DNA of 7,280 bases from a virus. Taxonomy: Duplodnaviria > Heunggongvirae > Uroviricota > Caudoviricetes. A program made the translations under genes and the position numbers. Position 1 is the first letter of the stretch; each line of letters starts with the position of its first letter. Below the pieces are notes generated by a model, which saw only the letters and a program-made list of their open reading frames with translations, made no database searches and was not told the DNA's origin. The stretch is from the IMG/VR virus record IMGVR_UViG_2541047771_000008, positions 1 to 7,280 of that record, one strand, 5' to 3'. Shown one piece after another: positions 1 through 7,280 of this stretch.

Positions 1-1239
1 ATGAGCAGGGCAATTCATAGACTTAGCGACACTCTTTTACGAAAATTAAGCGGATCACCAACCACAAAAAACACCTTTTTTAATGATGGTGGCAACCTTA
101 GCGTAAGGCATTCAACCAATGGCCTGTTAACCTGGTATTTCACTTACAGGGCCGGAACTGGCAGGCAGGTATCACCGGAACGCCTGAGACTGGGCAACTA
201 TCCCGATCTGAGCCTGAAAGCAGCCAGAGAAAAAGCGGCACAGTGTCGCGCCTGGCTGGCGGAGGGGAAAAATCCACGCCATGAGCTTAATCACACAGTG
301 CAGGAAGCGTTAGCACCTGTAACGGTTAAGGACGCGATCACTTACTGGCTTGAGTCATACGCGAAGGAAAAGCGCACTGACCACGAATCACTGAAAAGCC
401 GGATCAATAAGCACATAATCAGCCAGATTGGTGCTATGCCGCTGGATAAATGCGAGTTACGCCACTGGCTGGCCTGTTTTGACCAGCTTGCTAAGCGTAA
501 TCCGGTATCAGCCGGCTTTTTGTTGCAGGTATGCAAGCAGGCGCTTAAGTACTGCCGTAAACGTCGCTACGCCGTCAGTAACGTTCTTGATGATATGGTC
601 GTAGGTGATGTGGGAAAAAAAGCAGAAATAAGCGAGCGAGTGCTAACAAACAAGGAGCTTGGCGAGCTACTCCGCGCACTGGATGAAAAAATTTTCCCGC
701 CGTACTACAGCGCCTTAATTCGCCTTCTGATTGTCTTTGGATGCCGTACCACTGAGCTAAGACGCTCCGAGGTTCAGGAATGGGATTTTAAAGAAATGCT
801 CTGGACTGTGCCGAAAGAACACAGCAAAACGAAGGTAGCAATATTCAGGCCAATACCGGAAGCGATCTTGCCGTTTGTCATGAAGCTGGTGGAGAAGAAC
901 AGGCACACGGGCTTATTGCTTGGAGAACTGAAAGGGCAATCATCCGTAGCAGAGTACGGAAGAACGGCACACAGACGCATTAATCAAGCCCCCTGGTCGT
1001 TGCATGACATCCGGCACACATTTACAACCATGCTGAACGATTTAGGCGTGGATCCGCATATTGTCGAGCAGCTTACCGCCCACCAGATGCCGGGGATGCA
1101 ACGAGTCTATAACCACTCCCGTTATCTTGATGCAAAACGTGATGCTCTTAATCTATGGGTAGACCGTCTCGAGCTTCTCCAGAACAATGATGAAAAAATC
1201 GTTGTTATGACCCCGCGAATTTACCCCCAAAATTCTTGA
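1..1239 (+). CDS. int: site-specific tyrosine integrase, P4-type
   Basis: Complete 412-aa ORF starting at window position 1 with stop TGA at 1237-1239. The C-terminal half carries tyrosine-recombinase signatures (LHDIRHTFTT box, RVYNHSRYLD tyrosine region, upstream conserved Arg region). Length and N-terminal domain fit P4-like integrases. The RBS and att site would lie left of the window and cannot be seen. Confidence 0.92.
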   Translation: MSRAIHRLSDTLLRKLSGSPTTKNTFFNDGGNLSVRHSTNGLLTWYFTYRAGTGRQVSPERLRLGNYPDLSLKAAREKAAQCRAWLAEGKNPRHELNHTVQEALAPVTVKDAITYWLESYAKEKRTDHESLKSRINKHIISQIGAMPLDKCELRHWLACFDQLAKRNPVSAGFLLQVCKQALKYCRKRRYAVSNVLDDMVVGDVGKKAEISERVLTNKELGELLRALDEKIFPPYYSALIRLLIVFGCRTTELRRSEVQEWDFKEMLWTVPKEHSKTKVAIFRPIPEAILPFVMKLVEKNRHTGLLLGELKGQSSVAEYGRTAHRRINQAPWSLHDIRHTFTTMLNDLGVDPHIVEQLTAHQMPGMQRVYNHSRYLDAKRDALNLWVDRLELLQNNDEKIVVMTPRIYPQNS

Positions 1240-1290
1240 CAAATTACGGCTGTTTTTTCTTTAAGAGATTACAGCCGTGAATAAATCGTA

Positions 1291-1320
1291 GAATATCGGA
1301 AAATATCTGCAAATATCTTC
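1291..1320. repeat. three tandem 10-bp phased repeats (GAATATCGGA / AAATATCTGC / AAATATCTTC) in the int-alpA spacer
   Basis: Read directly: the AATATC core recurs at exact 10-bp periodicity, placing the copies on one face of the helix. The spacer 1240-1658 is strongly AT-rich. Function (regulator, IHF or recombination-directionality binding) is inferred only. Confidence 0.4.
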
Positions 1321-1658
1321 GCTTTATATATGTCAACCATCAAAAAATTGGAATGTCTTCTTCTGAACTTTTATTCTCTGTTTCTTGATTGTTCCAACAC
1401 TTGATGGTTTATCTATTTGTTTTTAATGAGATAATTCAAGCGCAATGCCAAGTAACGACATTTTTTGTTGCATCGCTTAAAAACTCGTGACACGATTTTA
1501 AACACTAACGAGCTTCTACGAACCTTAGCGAACAAAGCCTTTAGCAAGGTTGTGTTTTTAATTTAAGAGGTGAAAAAAGAATCTAAGTAATATCCGATCT
1601 CATATATCTACAGCTAAGAGAAAAGTTTATATACGTAATTTTTTATGTAGGTTTTTGT

Positions 1659-1868
1659 ATGCGTGAAATAAATGAAGATCGCGTAATCCGTGAGGATGAA
1701 TGTCGTAAGTTAACTGGAGTGTGTCGCACTACACGCTATGAACTGGAGAAAAAAGGGAATTTCCCGTCACGCCGTAATCTGGGCGGTCGTTCTGTAGGTT
1801 GGCTGCTGTCCGAGGTTATGGAATGGGTTAAAAGCCGGGATCGCATTAATTCAGGCAAGGCAGCGTAA
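1659..1868 (+). CDS. alpA: AlpA/Vis-family helix-turn-helix regulator (prophage transcriptional activator / excision regulator)
   Basis: 69-aa ORF; the segment CRKLTGVCRTTRYELEKKGNFPSRRNLGGRSVGWLLSEVMEWV matches the AlpA family pattern (HTH followed by FP-x-P...G-x-RSV-x-W...EV-x-W). A weak AGG lies 8 nt upstream of ATG 1659. The position just after int is typical for P4-like elements and PICIs. Confidence 0.88.
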   Translation: MREINEDRVIREDECRKLTGVCRTTRYELEKKGNFPSRRNLGGRSVGWLLSEVMEWVKSRDRINSGKAA

Positions 1869-1895
1869 AGGGGAGCATATGACATATAAAACAAA

Positions 1896-1915
1896 GGCGA
1901 CCGGGGGCGGTCGCC
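1896..1915 (-). terminator. intrinsic terminator hairpin for the minus-strand mini-operon (possibly also a weak stop for alpA)
   Basis: Perfect 8-bp GC stem GGCGACCG / CGGTCGCC with loop GGGG. On the minus strand the hairpin is followed by a U-rich tract (complement of 1879-1895 gives UUUGUUUUAUAUGUCAU). On the plus strand no U-tract follows. It lies about 70 nt past the stop of the minus-strand gene ending at 1983. Confidence 0.5.
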
Positions 1916-1982
1916 AATGGATACACACTAAACTTGAACGCATCACCAACAATGCCACATTTGCGGCTGGTGGGCAATGTGA

Positions 1983-2156
1983 TCAGTCAGATTTGGTTCG
2001 TTCCAAGGTTTGCAACGAGAGCTTTTTCCTGTGCTCTTTAAGGAATTTCTCAAGAGCAAAAGCACATGGCGCGAATCTTTCTGATTCATGCTCTATCTTT
2101 CTGCGCCGTCTTTTCCGTGCCGGTGATAATGTTTTGGTCAATTCTTTATCGGTCAT
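1983..2156 (-). CDS. small highly basic protein (57 aa), unknown function
   Basis: Minus-strand ORF; the start is chosen at the second ATG (2156) because AGGA sits 7 nt upstream, whereas the ATG at 2171 has no SD. Translation MTDKELTKTLSPARKRRRRKIEHESERFAPCAFALEKFLKEHRKKLSLQTLERTKSD is K/R/E-rich and predicted helical. It sits second in an operon after the RHH gene. No family recognised by eye. Confidence 0.5.
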   Translation of the reverse strand: MTDKELTKTLSPARKRRRRKIEHESERFAPCAFALEKFLKEHRKKLSLQTLERTKSD

Positions 2157-2213
2157 TGTGTTGTCCTGCATAGCAATGCGCCGTAGTTACTCACACCACG
2201 GCGCTGGTGATGG

Positions 2214-2393
2214 TTACTCCTGCTCTTTGGCCTTGCGGCGCTGGCGGCGTTTGATCTCGCCTTTAACGGCAGTAACTATAAATTGCGCCTTGCTTTCACC
2301 TTCATCTAAATTTTTTTCTAAGTCTGCAACAACATCATGCGGGAATCTGGCATTTAACTGTTGCGACTTATTATTTGTTGAACCTGTTGCCAT
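2214..2393 (-). CDS. ribbon-helix-helix (Arc/Mnt/CopG-like) DNA-binding protein, 59 aa
   Basis: Minus-strand ORF starting at ATG 2393 with SD AGAGAGGA 7 nt upstream; the longer 117-aa version from the ORF track has an implausible N-terminus. The segment QQLNARFPHDVVADLEKNLDEGESKAQFIVTAVKGEI follows the RHH layout and resembles P22 Arc (QFNLRWPREVLDLVRKVAEENGRSVNSEIYQRV, recalled from memory): beta-strand, helix A, G-x-S turn, helix B. It is followed by a basic tail. Confidence 0.72.
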   Translation of the reverse strand: MATGSTNNKSQQLNARFPHDVVADLEKNLDEGESKAQFIVTAVKGEIKRRQRRKAKEQE

Positions 2394-2414
2394 TACTGAA
2401 TCCTCTCTAAGTTG

Positions 2415-2504
2415 GTGCGATTCAGTATACACAAAAAAAATTTCAGAGAAAGGCTTGAAGTGCGATTCACTTGCTGATAGGTTAAAAACGAATGGTGCGA
2501 TGCA
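2415..2504. promoter_or_regulatory. divergent promoter/operator region with three direct repeats GTGCGAT(T/G)CA
   Basis: Repeats at 2415-2424, 2460-2469 and 2495-2504; the third is embedded in the palindrome GGTGCGATGCACC (2494-2506). On the minus strand a near-consensus -10 TATACT (complement of 2424-2429) abuts repeat 1, just upstream of the RHH SD. On the plus strand a candidate TTGAAG (2455-2460), 17-bp spacer, TAGGTT (2478-2483) overlaps repeat 2. The promoter hexamers are weak and this is inferred. Confidence 0.4.
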
Positions 2505-2748
2505 CCAAGCAACAACGCCCCGCAGTGGTGGCACACATGCAGGGCGTCTAACCACCAACGATAGCAACAGTATCGAGGCAGCTATGAGAAATTATACCAG
2601 ACACCCGCAAGGGCGGGACTCGCACAACCTGAATAAAGCGGGTGTAAAAAACCAGTTGATCGCCACTGCAAGCCAGGGCTATGATTTATCCGCACCAGCA
2701 AAATCTGGTGCCGGGATTGGCGTCCTGGAAATGTCAAAGGCGATATAT

Positions 2749-2768
2749 GACGCGCCAGCGTCTTTTTT
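2749..2768 (+). terminator. weak intrinsic terminator-like hairpin inside the long leader
   Basis: GACGC-GCCA-GCGTC (5-bp GC stem, 4-nt loop) followed immediately by TTTTTT (2763-2768). No plus-strand ORF with a start codon ends here. It could mark the 3' end of a small RNA or an attenuation point before the Icd-like operon. The stem is short, so confidence is low. Confidence 0.3.
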
Positions 2769-2934
2769 ATCGTCCGCATTCGCTCACATCAAAGTTATGG
2801 TGGGCTGGGCGGGGGCTTCTTCGGAAGCGCCGGTTCCCTTTGACGCCGGTTACGCCAACCCCGTTCAGTCCACCGCCAGCGAAATTGGCGTTTCCTGCGG
2901 TGGAAATTCTTCACTGTCAAAGGAGGCTGCCAAC

Positions 2935-3123
2935 ATGGCTACTATCCCTACCCTTGTACATTCTCAAACCGCCTTTCTCTGGCGCTTTATCATCTTTGGC
3001 GCGTCAGACCATCAAATCATCCACGTCACCGCCTGGACGGAACGTGAAGCGCGTAACCGCTGCCCGTCCGGTTGTGTTGCTGTATTCGCCGCCCGTATTC
3101 GCCAGGGGGTGTGCCATGCCTGA
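2935..3123 (+). CDS. small Icd-like protein (62 aa; prophage cell-division-inhibitor-like), first gene of the replication operon
   Basis: ATG 2935 is preceded by a perfect SD AGGAGG (2921-2926) at 8-nt spacing. Translation MATIPTLVHSQTAFLWRFIIFGASDHQIIHVTAWTEREARNRCPSGCVAVFAARIRQGVCHA resembles the short Icd-like proteins I recall being annotated beside P4-type integrases (memory only, not searched). It is the in-frame C-terminal end of the 414-aa shadow ORF; an alternative upstream start at 2584 (GAGG SD) cannot be excluded. Confidence 0.68.
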   Translation: MATIPTLVHSQTAFLWRFIIFGASDHQIIHVTAWTEREARNRCPSGCVAVFAARIRQGVCHA

Positions 3124-3436
3124 TATGTCAAATTACCAGTACCTGATTAATCCGCATTTTAACTGTGAGCATGATATTGCTAAAAAGGTTTATTCCGCTG
3201 CGGATGGGGCTACTGACAATATATCAATGGGTATTGCGTCAATTGGTAGCCTGATGTGGCATGCGTCAGAAAATGAGGACTATGACGAAAAGGCCATGCG
3301 CATTGATATGGGTAATATCGGTTTGTTACTGGCAATGCTTGGGCAGTTTGATATTTCGTTACGGTGCACCATTGAAAATGCCACAGATGCATTAAATGCC
3401 ATAAAGAAAGCGAATACTGATTCAAATCGGGGATAA
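3116..3436 (+). CDS. hypothetical protein (106 aa)
   Basis: ATG 3116 overlaps the upstream stop (ATGCCTGA, 3116-3123), indicating translational coupling. SD AGGGGG (3104-3109) precedes it. The N-terminal 145 codons of the annotated 251-aa ORF are Pro/Arg-rich junk, so the start is trimmed to 3116. The retained part has balanced composition. No family recognised. Confidence 0.68.
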   Translation: MPDMSNYQYLINPHFNCEHDIAKKVYSAADGATDNISMGIASIGSLMWHASENEDYDEKAMRIDMGNIGLLLAMLGQFDISLRCTIENATDALNAIKKANTDSNRG

Positions 3437-3442
3437 ATAATC

Positions 3443-3742
3443 ATGAGAACATATATATCTGGCTTGACTGCCAGCGGTTATGCACACCCCAAAATTATCC
3501 CCGGCGCTATTTATCTGGATAAGAACGGTAACAGAGTAACGGTAAAAGAACTGATGTTTGACCGTGTGTATTTTATTCGTGATGGCTATTCATTTCATAG
3601 TTCGCTGAACGTGGAGATCTTTATTTGCAGATTCCGGCGGGAAATCCCGCCTTCCAGAAATAACCATGTGTCATGTATGGATGTTGATAAAAAACTACAG
3701 GAGCTGAAAAACATGATTGCCGCGTGGAGAGAGCAGAAATGA
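3443..3742 (+). CDS. hypothetical protein (99 aa), coupled to the helicase/primase gene
   Basis: ATG 3443 lies 6 nt after the upstream stop, with GGGGA upstream. Its stop TGA (3740-3742) overlaps the next start (ATGA at 3739-3742). It occupies the position held by small early genes such as epsilon in P4; that is positional analogy only, with no sequence recognition. Confidence 0.68.
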   Translation: MRTYISGLTASGYAHPKIIPGAIYLDKNGNRVTVKELMFDRVYFIRDGYSFHSSLNVEIFICRFRREIPPSRNNHVSCMDVDKKLQELKNMIAAWREQK

Positions 3743-5556
3743 AAAAAGCGCCAAATTTAAAACACCAGCCGCGTGACAAAATGACGGAAGTCATCATTTT
3801 TGCGGGTAGTAATGCGTGGGCACATGCGAAGCAGTGGCAGGAACAGGACGGGCGACTGGCTGGCGATAACGTGCCTCCTGTCTGGCTTGGAGAGCAACAA
3901 CTTGCCGAACTGGACAACCTGCAAATCGTACCGGACGGACGCTATCGCGTGCGTCTCTATCAGGCGGGGTTATTGCGTCCGGGGCTTGTTAATACCATCG
4001 GGCAGAAACTGGCAGCGGCAGGTGTCAGGGATGCTGATTATTACCCTGAAGGAATGCACAGCCAGAAACGGGAGAACTGGCGCGAATATCTGGAACGTGA
4101 ACGGGCAGAGCTGGCGGAAAAGAAAAAGGTAGTTGAACTGCCTGTAAAGAAAAAAGAGCGGGTAAAAGACGATAACGCTTCATCACTGGCGCTTAACCAG
4201 ATGGGAGCAAGTCAACGCGGCGAAGTTCTCCTGGCACATTATGGCGGTGAACTGGCGATTCATGCTGACTCTGACACTGTTCACCATTACAACGGCGTTG
4301 TATGGGAGCCAGTACAGGATAAAGAATTACAGCGAGCTATGGCACAGATTTTCATTGATGCGGAGATCAGCTATTCGCAGAACGCCATTAAATCGGCGGT
4401 CGATACCATGAAGTTAAGTTTGCCTGTTATGGGGAATACAGCCCGTAACCTGATTGGATTCAGTAACGGGGTATTTGATACCAGAACAGGTAATTTTCGG
4501 GAGCATAACAAAAACGACTGGTTGTTAATTGCCAGTGAATTACCTTTCAGCCCACCAGCAGAGGGGGAAACGCTGGCAACACATGCGCCGAATTTCTGGA
4601 AGTGGTTACGCCGTTCGGTGGCTGAGAATGACTGCAAGGCGGATCGCGTACTGGCTGCATTATTCATGGTGCTGGCGAACAGGTACGACTGGCAGTTATT
4701 CATTGAGGTAACAGGTCCAGGAGGAAGTGGTAAAAGCGTGATGGCGGAGATTTGCACCATGCTGGCGGGTAAGGCCAACACAGTATCGGCAAGCATGAAG
4801 GCGCTGGAAGATGCAAGGGAACGCGCGTTAGTGGTTGGCTTTTCGCTGATTATCATGCCGGATATGACCCGCTACGCTGGTGATGGGGCAGGAATTAAGG
4901 CCATTACAGGCGGTGACAAGGTGGCAATTGACCCGAAACACAAAGCCCCCTACTCAACGCGTATTCCGGCAGTAGTGCTGGCGGTTAACAATAACGCCAT
5001 GTCATTCAGTGACCGCAGCGGGGGGATCTCACGTCGTCGGGTGATATTCAATTTTTCGGAAGTTGTACCGGAGGACGAACGCGATCCGATGCTGGCGGAA
5101 AAAATAGAAGGTGAGCTGGCGGTAGTGATTCGCCATCTGCTTACACGGTTTGCTGACCAGGACGAAGCCAGACGCCTGTTATATGAGCAGCAGAAATCTG
5201 AAGAAGCACTGGCGATAAAGCGAGAGGGGGATTCGCTGGTGGACTTCTGCGGCTATCTCATGGCGTCGGTAATGTGTGATGGCCTGTTAGTGGGTAATGC
5301 TGAAATTGTGCCATTCAGCCCACGCAGGTATCTCTATCATGCCTATCTGGCTTATATGAGGGCACATGGGTTTGGTAAACCTGTAACACTGACGCGCTTC
5401 GGTAAAGATATGCCGGGGGCAATGGCGGAATATGGCAGGGAGTATATGAAACGGAAAACGAAGCACGGTTTGCGTTCAAACGTGACACTGACGGAGGAAT
5501 CAGAAGACTGGATGCCATCATGTGTATCGGTCACTAATGACGACAGCAAAAATTAA
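3739..5556 (+). CDS. replication protein: P4 alpha-like primase C-terminal (D5_N-like) plus SF3 helicase
   Basis: 605 aa from ATG 3739 (SD GGAGAGAG upstream; the ORF track's GTG at 3724 is a less likely start). Walker A is VTGPGGSGKS, a Walker B-like stretch is FSLIIMPDM, and motif C is VLAVNNNAMSFSDRSGG. The block upstream of the P-loop (NLIGFSNGVFDTRTG) is typical of phage/plasmid primase C-terminal regions. The matching iteron array lies immediately downstream. Confidence 0.9.
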   Translation: MKKAPNLKHQPRDKMTEVIIFAGSNAWAHAKQWQEQDGRLAGDNVPPVWLGEQQLAELDNLQIVPDGRYRVRLYQAGLLRPGLVNTIGQKLAAAGVRDADYYPEGMHSQKRENWREYLERERAELAEKKKVVELPVKKKERVKDDNASSLALNQMGASQRGEVLLAHYGGELAIHADSDTVHHYNGVVWEPVQDKELQRAMAQIFIDAEISYSQNAIKSAVDTMKLSLPVMGNTARNLIGFSNGVFDTRTGNFREHNKNDWLLIASELPFSPPAEGETLATHAPNFWKWLRRSVAENDCKADRVLAALFMVLANRYDWQLFIEVTGPGGSGKSVMAEICTMLAGKANTVSASMKALEDARERALVVGFSLIIMPDMTRYAGDGAGIKAITGGDKVAIDPKHKAPYSTRIPAVVLAVNNNAMSFSDRSGGISRRRVIFNFSEVVPEDERDPMLAEKIEGELAVVIRHLLTRFADQDEARRLLYEQQKSEEALAIKREGDSLVDFCGYLMASVMCDGLLVGNAEIVPFSPRRYLYHAYLAYMRAHGFGKPVTLTRFGKDMPGAMAEYGREYMKRKTKHGLRSNVTLTEESEDWMPSCVSVTNDDSKN

Positions 5557-5567
5557 ACTTATGGAAT

Positions 5568-5800
5568 AACTGTTCACCACTGTTCACCCTGTCATAAATA
5601 TCTTTTATATCAGTATATTATAGGGTGAACAGTTATTTATGAACTGTTCACCAAACTATTCACTGTTCACCTTTTTGATTGTTTATTGAGCTTCAAGGGT
5701 GAACAGTGGTGAACAGTTGGTGAATAGTTTTTGTGAAACTGTTCACCCCTTAACATTATGAATTAAAAGATAAAATATCAAAAGGTGAACAGGTGAAGGG
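5568..5800. repeat. replication origin (P4 ori/crr-type): iteron array of TGTTCACC octamers with AT-rich spacers
   Basis: Perfect TGTTCACC at 5571-5578, 5581-5588, 5645-5652, 5664-5671 and 5740-5747. Reverse-complement GGTGAACA at 5624-5631, 5698-5705, 5708-5715 and 5784-5791. Degenerate copies at 5719-5726 and 5792-5799. AT-rich stretches (for example 5591-5623) lie between copies. The octamer matches the type I iteron bound by P4 alpha protein as I recall it. Confidence 0.82.
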
Positions 5801-5843
5801 TTAAAACGCAAAAATTTTAATTTACTGCTGTGAGATAAAGCCT

Positions 5844-6089
5844 ATGACAGCGAAGCACACAAAAAAATCACAATCGCACGCCCTTGATTTGACGGAACAC
5901 TGGTTAAGGGTGTCGATAAAAATCATCGACCGCAACGCCGGGGAAGGATATGCGAAAGCACATCCAGAACTGATTAGCGCATTCATGACAACGGCAGCTG
6001 CAAACTTTGCCACGCTGACAGAACGGGAGATTGCCGAAGCGGAACAGGTGACAACCATCAACGTTAAAACCGGAGAGCAGACAGCATGA
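5844..6089 (+). CDS. hypothetical small protein (81 aa)
   Basis: The ORF has a weak SD (GAGAT). Its stop overlaps the SSB start (ATGA at 6086-6089), which supports it being real and co-translated with ssb. Minus-strand ORFs over the same region are Cys/Trp-rich and look like antisense artefacts. No family recognised. Confidence 0.5.
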   Translation: MTAKHTKKSQSHALDLTEHWLRVSIKIIDRNAGEGYAKAHPELISAFMTTAAANFATLTEREIAEAEQVTTINVKTGEQTA

Positions 6090-6508
6090 CAGCACAGATA
6101 GCGGCTTACGGGCGGCTGGTGGCTGACCCGCAGTTAAAGACCACCAGCAAGGGTACACAAATGACGATGGCTAGTATGGCAGTCCCCCTTCCGTGCAGCC
6201 AGGCAGATGACGGAACGGCGACGATGTGGTTATCCGTCCTGGCGTTTGGCAGACAGGCCGACGCACTGGCAAAACACCACAAAGGCGAACTGGTGAGCGT
6301 GGCGGGTAACATGCAGGTAAGCCAGTGGACAGGCCAGAACGGCGAAACGCGGCAGGGCTGGCAGGTTATCGCAGACAGCGTGATCAGTGCGCGAACAGCG
6401 CGACCGGGCGGCAAAAAAGGCCAGCAGGGGCAGGCCACTGACGCACTGAACAGGGCAAAACAACAGTCGGGGAATGATGATCCGTACGGCGATAATATAC
6501 CGTTTTAA
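6086..6508 (+). CDS. ssb: single-stranded DNA-binding protein (SSB family, OB fold with acidic C-terminal tail)
   Basis: 140 aa with SD GGAGAG 8 nt upstream. The OB-fold core aligns by eye to E. coli SSB (GRLVADPQL...WLSVLAFGRQADALAKHHKGELVSVAGNMQVSQWTGQNGETRQGWQVIADSV versus VGNLGQDPEV...[51 protein letters not shown]). A Gly/Gln-rich linker follows, and the C-terminus ...DDPYGDNIPF matches the SSB tip motif (E. coli ends DDDIPF). Confidence 0.85.
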   Translation: MTAQIAAYGRLVADPQLKTTSKGTQMTMASMAVPLPCSQADDGTATMWLSVLAFGRQADALAKHHKGELVSVAGNMQVSQWTGQNGETRQGWQVIADSVISARTARPGGKKGQQGQATDALNRAKQQSGNDDPYGDNIPF

Positions 6509-6525
6509 ATTCTGCAAACAAAAAG

Positions 6526-6554
6526 ATGCCGGAAAAAAATAGATTTTCCGGCAT
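6526..6554. terminator. perfect 11-bp hairpin, probable transcription terminator between ssb and the capsid gene
   Basis: ATGCCGGAAAA-AAATAGA-TTTTCCGGCAT at 6526-6554. A clean U-tract follows only in the minus orientation (complement of 6511-6525 gives CUUUUUGUUUG). On the plus strand the hairpin is preceded by an A-tract with no U-tract after it. It may be bidirectional or protect ssb from leftward read-through. Confidence 0.45.
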
Positions 6555-6725
6555 GCTACATAAATCCCGACCAAAGGAAGTAAATACATTAACACGAATT
6601 ATCAGCACTGAAGTTGTCACGGCATATTTTATACAACATTGCACTTGGTTGCATGTATTCGCATAGCAGACATCGGTAATAGAATATATTCACAATTATT
6701 TGTAATGAATGTAAAGAGGATGAGT

Positions 6726-7280
6726 ATGGTTGACTTATATTCGCCTACACAGCTTGTGCAGGTGGCTAATGCTGAAGATGTGCAAAAAAAATTAAATGCG
6801 TTGTTTACCAGTTTGTTTTTCACTCGCTCGGTAATGTTTGAATCGAGAGACATTATTCTTGATACGATCGACGATCCAAATATCCCGATCGCGGCGTTTT
6901 GCTCTCCTATGGTGGGCAGTAAAGTTTCACGAGATGAGGGATACGAATCAAAAACAATTCGCCCTGGCTATATGAAACCGAAAAGCAGCATTGATCCAAA
7001 TAAGTTAGCTGTGCGCCCTGCTGGTGTATCACCTGAGCAATACAATGCTTTTGGAGCGCGTAATATTAAAGTTAAACAGGCGATTGTAAATCAGGCTAAA
7101 GCTATTCGTGCACGTATTGAATGGCTTGCCGTTCAGGCAATCACAACGGGGAAAAATATCATTGAGGGCGATGGTATTGAACGTTATGAGCTGGACTGGA
7201 ATATTAAACCACAAAATATCATCACTCAGTCTGGCGGTGCTGAGTGGTCAGGTAAGGATAAAGAAGCTTTTGATCCAAAT
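6726..7280 (+). CDS. major capsid protein, lambda gpE family (5' portion; gene continues beyond the window)
   Basis: Open frame from ATG 6726 to the window end (185 codons, no stop), with SD AAGAGGA 5 nt upstream; an in-frame ATG at 6720 would give MSMVD..., mirroring the lambda E N-terminus MSMY. Recalled lambda gpE blocks match: IRPGYMKPK versus FTPGYVKPK, and NIITQSGGAEWSGKDKEAFDP versus NITQSGGTEWSKRDKSTYDP. Not in the ORF track because it has no stop in the window. Confidence 0.82.
   Translation, partial: MVDLYSPTQLVQVANAEDVQKKLNALFTSLFFTRSVMFESRDIILDTIDDPNIPIAAFCSPMVGSKVSRDEGYESKTIRPGYMKPKSSIDPNKLAVRPAGVSPEQYNAFGARNIKVKQAIVNQAKAIRARIEWLAVQAITTGKNIIEGDGIERYELDWNIKPQNIITQSGGAEWSGKDKEAFDPN

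Follow-up and report, generated by a model that had tools for sequence, protein, structure and literature searches.

A probable P4-type RNA immunity cassette within a conserved open frame of an Escherichia coli satellite island

We analysed a stretch of 7,280 nucleotides from a Caudoviricetes virus record (IMGVR_UViG_2541047771_000008, positions 1 to 7,280; hereafter the window), whose source is E. coli assembly GCA_000458035.1, contig KE700170.1. The region under study, 2394-2934, lies between the start of a minus-strand RHH regulator gene (2393) and the ATG of an Icd-like gene (2935), both of which are where an original prediction for this DNA had placed them. We consider it very probable that 2655-2940 is an intact RNA immunity cassette of the P4 type, housed in a satellite island like the phage-inducible chromosomal islands (PICIs), in which the antisense RNA C4 silences the icd-like operon and translation arriving from upstream overrides that silencing. 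The core of the original prediction, a C4/CI-type antisense RNA region ahead of the Icd-like gene as in P1 and P4, is thus upheld, with Rfam matches, covariation and colinearity with P4 in agreement. At the level of sequence, the elements follow one another in the order promoter, IsrK-like RNA with target sites a1 and b1 and a terminator, C4, and target sites a2 and b2, the last of which overlaps a Shine-Dalgarno (SD) sequence. Features are on the plus strand unless stated otherwise.

The C4 and IsrK-like RNAs and their co-varying targets

The Rfam scan was run over the whole window on both strands. On the plus strand, the covariance-model search that the original prediction had proposed finds a C4/CI antisense RNA at 2793-2880 (RF01695, 82.0 bits against a gathering score of 45, E 1.7e-15); the match takes in the full model (positions 1-87 of 87), no pair in it was flagged as non-canonical, and the scan of the minus strand found nothing in the region. 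The RNA has the C4 architecture, two hairpins enclosed by a basal stem of 17 bp. Of its two recognition sequences, b' (CCTTTGAC, 2837-2844) is exposed in the loop of hairpin 2 and a' (ACGCCAA, 2852-2858) in a single-stranded junction; a CCA tail (2876-2878) directly follows the basal stem. In a fold alignment of 26 homologs made with RNAalifold, P4 among them, 13 of the 24 C4 pairs show compensatory changes. Three homologs were also compared with the window one by one: an 87% identical locus (L001), a near-identical island (L002) and the same island with another RHH allele (L127). In the first of these, hairpin 1 of C4 is altered by compensatory substitutions. The covariation that had been suggested as a further check is therefore present in the C4 stems, and it is strong between loops and targets, as described below.

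Upstream of C4 lies a second small RNA of the IsrK/seqA type, at 2692-2768 (RF01394, 75.1 bits against a gathering score of 50). Read from the sequence, it consists of two hairpins with a promoter of its own and an intrinsic terminator. The promoter, at 2656-2685, is of the constitutive sigma-70 type (-35 TTGATC, 18-nt spacer, -10 TATGAT), and its -10 element ends 6 nt upstream of where the isrK model starts. Target a1 (TTGGCGT, 2717-2723) lies in the loop of hairpin 2, and target b1 (GTCAAAGG) lies at 2733-2740. The terminator found by the consensus scan is a stem-loop at 2749-2762 followed by a T6 run at 2763-2768; this is the hairpin with a T6 tract that had already been noticed at 2749-2768, and it now has an owner in the IsrK-like RNA. 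A third model, c4-a1b1 (RF03163), reaches 43.8 bits at 2679-2731, below its gathering score of 46.7. The stretch is covered by the isrK match, and P4 also falls short with this model, at 44.1 bits.

The region as a whole folds better than its shuffles (z = -5.06). It had been called GC-rich, and it does lie above the window average, if only mildly (51.6% against 47.1%); the part from 2692 to 2934 reaches 56%.

Two further target sites lie between C4 and the Icd-like gene. Target a2 (TTGGCGT) occupies 2885-2891, and target b2 (GTCAAAGG) occupies 2916-2923, where it overlaps the SD sequence GGAGG at 2922-2926. The a' sequence is perfectly complementary over 7 nt to both a1 and a2, and b' is perfectly complementary over 8 nt to both b1 and b2. 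We took comparative data as the main support for these pairings, since single-sequence duplex energies are too weak to decide.

A search of viral contigs with the conserved 3' part of C4 yielded 82 cassettes with 39 different b' loops. A complement of at least 7 nt to the b' loop is found at the same locus in 26 of the 39 cases for b1 and in 34 of the 39 for b2. When loops are set against the targets of other loci, such complements occur in 34 of 1482 pairs for b1 and 30 of 1482 for b2. The same concerted change can be followed in single comparisons. In L001, b', b1 and b2 change together: TTCCCTTTGACG becomes GTTCTTCGTTAA in the loop, GTCAAAGG becomes TTAACGAAG in one target, and the second target becomes TAACGAAGAGG. 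Between P4 and the window, the a and b specificities are both switched in concert, and both targets have changed to match; the window has ACGCCAA as a' and CCTTTGAC as b', where P4 has TTCTCAC and CCTGTGAA. The window falls in the class with a 12-nt loop, as do P4 and SfV, while Gifsy-1 belongs to a class with an 8-nt loop and other classes have loops of 8-13 nt. The two short recognition sequences thus diversify, with 39 b' variants in this one sample, and presumably set up incompatibility groups among satellites and lambdoid prophages. The RNAs would determine which elements share immunity.

The 3' arm of the C4 basal stem has a second possible partner. This arm (TCCACCGC, 2869-2876) also pairs with GCGGTGGA at 2897-2904, a downstream copy of the C4 5' arm sequence, to give an alternative hairpin (2869-2904) that shows a2 in its loop and is mutually exclusive with the basal stem. 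The arms of this hairpin co-vary among the 58 variants listed, for example as GCTACCACC/GGTGGTAGC and CCATCACC/GGTGATGG, and the hairpin is also present in P4 (CTATCGCC/GGCGATAG). Such an alternative fold could decide between maturation of C4 and presentation of the target.

A stop-free frame from alpA to the Icd-like gene

The original prediction had held that no credible protein is encoded between the RHH and Icd-like starts and that the only open frame is a shadow open reading frame (ORF). This view did not survive the comparison of homologs, because a plus-strand frame across the whole region is free of stops in every divergent homolog that we examined. In the window it is open from 1798 onward, and its first ATG (1879) follows the alpA stop codon (1866-1868) by 11 nt and is preceded by an SD-like AAGGGGAG. 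The resulting eta-like ORF of 414 codons (1879-3123) runs antisense through two minus-strand genes, a hypothetical gene (1983-2171) and the RHH gene, before it crosses the entire RNA module and closes with the Icd-like protein. A second possible start, upstream of the -35 element at 2656, is formed by an SD GAGG at 2575-2578 and an in-frame ATG at 2584. PGAP lets the Icd-like coding sequence (CDS) of L001 and L002 begin there; in L001, PGAP calls the frame 2584-3123 an Icd-like protein. This start site (2575-2586) is kept in L002, L127 and L001.

The segment between the two ATGs measures 705 nt in the window, 750 nt in L127 (5180-5929) and 648 nt in L001 (3043-3690), all multiples of 3; its coordinates in L002 are 2986-3690. 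Identity between the window and L127 is for the most part about 50% across the segment (1879-2583), yet the segment contains no stop in the window, L002, L127 or L001, whereas the other two plus-strand frames contain 11-17. Shuffles of the segment have 8.5 stops on average, and none of 2000 was free of them (P(0) < 1/2000). Antisense to 21 distinct RHH alleles, the long frame again has no stop, against 61 and 62 in the other two plus-strand frames. Among 43 distinct alpA islands collected by an AlpA scan of viral contigs, 27 have a single ORF from the alpA stop into the Icd-like C-terminus and in about 11 others the stretch is divided between two ORFs, which adjoin or overlap where icd starts, so that the chain is found in about 38 of the 43 overall. 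The same scan of genome contigs gave only two distant loci, both from unrelated bacteria (metagenome-assembled genomes of Kiloniellaceae and Deltaproteobacteria).

Across the cassette itself, we compared 40 variants of the 12-nt-loop class, with a median identity of 69% and a minimum of 51%. The long frame has no stop in 99 codons, against 105 and 177 stops, at 29 positions each, in the other frames, and every one of the 40 variants has an in-frame ATG upstream of the promoter. The peptide itself shows no amino-acid constraint over the cassette, with a pN/pS, pooled over 147 pairs, of 0.92 in the ORF frame and 0.80 and 0.85 in the others. Over the RHH overlap the pN/pS of the plus-strand frame is 0.48, a value that carries no information on the frame, since the overlapping gene constrains it. 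The Pfam family Phage_ASH (PF10554) matches residues 34-127 of the 179-aa ORF with 68.1 bits against a gathering score of 26. These residues correspond to nucleotides 2683-2964, a span that takes in the isrK and C4 matches and reaches the icd start, and purifying selection on the Phage_ASH peptide was not found by the pN/pS test of the 147 pairs. Where the window ORF resembles P4 Eta, the similarity tracks the RNA elements. Selection thus appears to keep the frame open, not the peptide, a pattern that matches P4 eta/kil.

In P4, transcripts from a constitutive promoter within eta are soon terminated and processed to CI, and Kil is a truncated Eta (PMC10111431). For full-length Eta to be translated, transcription must come from an upstream promoter; Eta is coupled to the alpA homolog, and its translation prevents termination (PMC10111431). 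The corresponding P4 ORF (8812-8168), which is 197-199 aa long from in-frame methionines, encloses seqA and CI, and its last part is a Kil-like peptide of 65 aa. The original prediction had set a longer conserved ORF with a start near 2584 against an RNA function. Such an ORF does exist here but leaves the RNA standing; in P4 the same RNAs sit inside the nested eta/kil genes (PMC10111431).

Since the frame is open from alpA to icd in divergent islands, even antisense to the RHH gene, ORF 1879-3123 may be a translated "ribosome track" that couples alpA to the icd-like operon and passes through the RHH gene in antisense, the operator region and the complete IsrK-C4 cassette, with selection on freedom from stop codons alone, so that translation from upstream promoters would override both Rho and RNA immunity. 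We regard the chances of this reading as evenly balanced. The conserved open frame from alpA to icd goes beyond the literature that we found; its function as a track is what we infer from it. If true, the P4 eta mechanism would extend to many Gram-negative PICI-like islands and to lambdoid "Ash" genes, and such translation-driven anti-termination would provide a simple rule for how an island escapes its own RNA immunity on induction. As a corollary, PF10554, which satellite surveys have taken as their marker for P4 "epsilon" (PMC8628076), would in essence be two conceptually translated Rfam RNAs. A review of the family, which has the look of translated RNA, may be warranted.

Immunity, escape and the alternatives

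Likeness to P4 is found in both the order and the detail of the elements. An alpA homolog, the start of the long ORF, a constitutive promoter, a seqA/IsrK-like RNA, CI/C4, seqC and an SD with its ATG come in the same order, the terminators are near-identical, and a1, b1, a2 and b2 align colinearly. The promoter of the window module is the counterpart of PLE and aligns with TTGCCT/TATAGT upstream of P4 seqA. IsrK and seqA, like C4 and CI, have been described as structural homologs in P4-like prophages (Barquist et al., PMC3632133), and a control Rfam scan of P4 gave the same three matches in the same order (c4-a1b1 44.1, isrK 60.8 and C4 74.9 bits). Both loci have a Kil/Icd-like gene of about 62-65 aa in frame with the long ORF, and the P4 ORF is colinear with that of the window. 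Recognition at two sites, a and b, with a 12-nt b' loop is likewise common to both, and the elements that carry them are both helper-dependent satellites with a primase of the D5/P4-alpha type. The two recognition sequences, however, both differ, so the immunity specificity of the window would differ from that of P4. P4 also has about 76 extra nt between terminator and CI, whereas the window has about 700 nt from alpA to the cassette, with two antisense genes (RHH and hypothetical) and operator repeats, over which the frame is kept open. The window island has capsid and terminase genes and, in the stretch examined, no P4 sid, psu or delta genes.

The immI region of P1 and P7 reportedly consists of the c4 antisense RNA, icd and ant, with a1/b1 upstream and a2/b2 over an icd-type ribosome-binding site. 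The window RNA matches the Rfam family of the P1 RNA over the full model, has the a' and b' loops, and carries a CCA tail that suits processing by RNase P. The mechanism to be expected is also the same, a translational block followed by polarity on downstream genes, but the window operon encodes replication and packaging functions, not the antirepressor Ant.

We propose a model in which read-through of the terminator would produce a transcript that includes the C4/CI RNA. As in P1 and P4, RNase P would cut C4 from this precursor, in which the CCA tail is present, and C4 would pair with a2 and b2 and thereby block translation of the icd-like gene. The untranslated C-rich RNA would then be terminated, probably by Rho, leaving the downstream replication and packaging operon (primase to capsid) silent in the resident island. 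The IsrK-like RNA and its site may contribute to the control of termination or may titrate C4. Escape would come from transcripts of the alpA promoter or of an RHH-controlled promoter, translated through the cassette in the 1879-3123 frame or from the alternative start at 2584. Ribosomes on these transcripts would unfold the terminator, C4 and its target sites and keep Rho off the RNA, so that expression from upstream promoters would be insensitive to the immunity. We infer this escape step from P4 eta, and the conservation of the frame supports it.

Several points weigh against this model. Expression, processing, pairing and termination at this locus are predictions only. The duplexes are short (8 and 7 bp), and 2 to 128 of 500 shuffles reach the observed energy, a margin so slight for a single sequence that the case rests on the comparative data. 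The near-identical island L002 has no IsrK/C4 cassette at all, and since it does without, the cassette must be dispensable for the island. The upstream regulated promoter is also weak: the rightward candidate at 2455-2483 (TTGAAG-17-TAGGTT) has 7 of 12 consensus positions and lies below the scan threshold, although it aligns with a stronger TTGACG-17-TACATT in L127. Finally, the role of IsrK is disputed, and in Gifsy-1 it is an activator, not a repressor (PMC4825925).

This last point leads to an alternative built on the logic of Gifsy-1, in which the short IsrK-like RNA would activate in trans by pairing with the transcript made by read-through and opening a fold that is silent in translation, so that an ORF crossing C4 is translated and the downstream gene is switched on; the cassette would then be an induction trigger. 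Such activation has been demonstrated experimentally: in Gifsy-1, IsrK transcripts pass the terminator, the ORF that spans the C4-like region undergoes translation, and STnc1160 is present as a processed RNA (PMC4825925). The Salmonella isrK-orf45 (STnc1160)-anrP locus shares with the window an IsrK-type RNA with its own promoter, a leaky terminator and a downstream C4-like RNA whose processing is known in Gifsy-1. The isrK model scores 75 bits in the window, the conserved alternative partner of the C4 3' arm resembles structures A and B of PMC4825925, and there is an in-frame ATG at the 5' edge of C4 (2797), as in orf45, from which an ORF crosses the RNA with its nucleotides conserved and its peptide not. 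That ORF, however, is fused in frame to icd (108 codons) and lacks the stop/ATGA junction, whereas orf45 of Gifsy-1 has 45 codons and ends in ATGA at the antirepressor gene, as is also seen at the Gifsy-type loci L007, L053 and L115. The window moreover belongs to the 12-nt-loop P4/SfV class and not to the 8-nt class of Gifsy-1, b2 lies over the SD of the gene that follows, just as it does in P1 and P4, and the locus is colinear with P4 down to the kil start. We therefore think a trigger of this kind rather unlikely as the main function, although activation and P4-type repression are not mutually exclusive and the former is possible as an overlay on the latter.

That the cassette was gained by recombination and is now an unused remnant seems to us very unlikely. 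The region is a mosaic and L002 manages without it, but all elements are intact in the window, from the promoter hexamers, terminator and stems to the perfect 8-nt and 7-nt matches at both sites, and the frame is still open. At least 15 complete E. coli genomes also match the 286-nt cassette at 100% identity, 35 match it at 99% or more, and in both of the genomes that were inspected it lies in the same island family. It is less credible still that an ordinary protein-coding gene without RNA function lies here ("Ash family" or "Icd-like", of at least 179 aa), as PGAP would have it. PGAP does annotate long CDSs, Phage_ASH matches with 68 bits over residues 34-127, and the frame is conserved open. 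A protein would not account for covariance-model scores far over threshold or for compensatory pair changes in the stems, and the three-way co-variation of loop and targets is inexplicable by it; the ORF frame has a pN/pS (0.92) no lower than that of the other frames, the 8-13-nt loops of other classes shift the frame, and the PGAP calls conflict among themselves (62, 179 and 246 aa, plus a pseudo "ash" fragment).

Least credible of all is the specific structure first put forward for the leader, in which an 8-bp stem would organise the region and regulation would act through segments complementary to GTGCGAT repeats. The sequences are all there: the stem ACACCCGC (2601-2608)/GCGGGTGT (2638-2645) encloses a 29-nt loop and occurs in the minimum-free-energy fold, and CTCGCAC (2619-2625) and ATCCGCACCA (2688-2697) lie where they had been seen, with GTGCGAT copies at 2415, 2460 and 2495. 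Yet at least one perfect 8-bp stem with a loop of at most 40 nt occurs in 23% of dinucleotide shuffles of the region, and this stem is broken in L001 and straddles the recombination junction at 2637/2638 between the window and L002. The complements to GTGCGAT are mismatched, and the homologs lend no support to their pairing with the repeats; ATCCGCACCA belongs to the IsrK-like hairpin as its 5' end, and the repeats switch along with the RHH allele, as protein operators do. Measured against homologs and shuffles, the leader stem and the complementarity to GTGCGAT were rejected as a regulatory structure; offered as evidence for the RNA, they are unrelated to the one that is actually there.

Returning to the P4-type cassette, it is real, intact and of a kind already described. 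For Gram-negative PICIs and helper-embedded PICIs, matches to C4 and isrK have been reported, which fall in the "Bro zone" and within "Bro network" genes of the Phage_ASH kind (PMC10111431). The islands described there have the same layout as the one in the window (integration, Bro, replication and late zones), with both Rfam families in a Phage_ASH-containing gene. That account runs to a few sentences and does not include the co-variation of targets, the frame that is kept open opposite the RHH gene or the polymorphism by which islands have or lack the cassette. What we add is the catalogue of target co-variation, the presence/absence mosaic, the reading of Phage_ASH as translated RNAs and the conserved frame from alpA to icd.

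The Icd-like gene, the RHH regulator and the island

The Icd/Kil-like gene (2935-3123, start codon 2935-2937) encodes 62 aa and matches NCBIfam phage_ICD_like (NF033153) with 59.2 bits. It is both the candidate target of regulation and the terminal part of the long ORF, and it aligns with P4 Kil; the block AGGAGGCTGCCAnCATGGCTAC is kept between the SD and start region of the window and the kil start of P4. The start of the icd-like ORF, 2926-3000, holds the most C-rich and G-poor 60-nt stretch of the plus strand of the window (21 C, 7 G). It is a candidate Rho loading site, which would be exposed when translation is blocked.

Divergent from the Icd-like operon is the RHH regulator gene (2214-2393, minus strand), of the YlcI/YnfO family (NCBIfam NF041551, 63.3 bits), which is under purifying selection (pN/pS 0.37 across the 21 alleles). 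Three 12-nt direct repeats TGGTGCGATTCA, which contain GTGCGAT, lie next to it at 2413-2424, 2458-2469 and 2493-2504, the second overlapping the weak promoter candidate at 2455-2483. In the otherwise identical island L127, a different RHH allele is accompanied by three different repeats, GTGTTCAACAC, in the same place (5781-5836). Because the repeat sequence changes together with the RHH allele, the TGGTGCGATTCA repeats are best read as candidate operators of the adjacent RHH protein and not as RNA targets. This co-variation of repressor and operator would imply several regulatory specificities within the island family.

The island has the order int-alpA-RHH-icd-DUF4222-primase-SSB-capsid, is integrated beside macB-cspD in E. 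coli, and resembles in its layout the Gram-negative PICIs. Related cassettes are present in 638 of 5426 genomes, and also in SfV and Stx phages. A stretch of L002 (E. coli ECL27829, 3501-3900), compared with 2394-3130 of the window, is 99.6% identical up to 2637 and then unrelated, with identity returning near 3084. In L002 the ATG equivalent to 2584 directly starts a 67-aa Icd-like protein, a different and shorter icd allele. Since this near-identical island lacks the cassette and has another icd allele directly following, the cassette and the icd core behave as an exchangeable, portable in-frame module.

Annotation of this DNA is uneven. Across L001, L127 and L128 (E. coli CREC-629, NZ_CP024815), PGAP labels the same DNA in four ways, as an Icd-like protein of 62 aa, of 179 aa or of 246 aa (a 741-nt CDS) and as a partial "ash family" pseudogene. 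The C4 and isrK RNAs are never marked by PGAP in these three, whereas the GenBank entry of the Stx phage LC710661 marks both. RefSeq labels are thus inconsistent, and the two RNAs go unmarked.

Between the primase gene and the next ORF, at 5571-5791, nine copies of CTGTTCACC in both orientations form nested inverted repeats, against 0.22 copies expected in the whole window. These repeats are probably iterons of the island replication origin. Weak Rfam matches to miRNA, RUF2 and SR1 at 5561-5730 and 6667-6732 are chance matches; those at 5561-5730 (miRNA, RUF2) are spurious, owing to the inverted repeats of the iterons there. In L128, the cassette matches six chromosomal places, and late genes (capsid, decoration, terminase) lie directly upstream of another int-alpA copy, which suggests that this genome carries tandem or multiple copies of the island.

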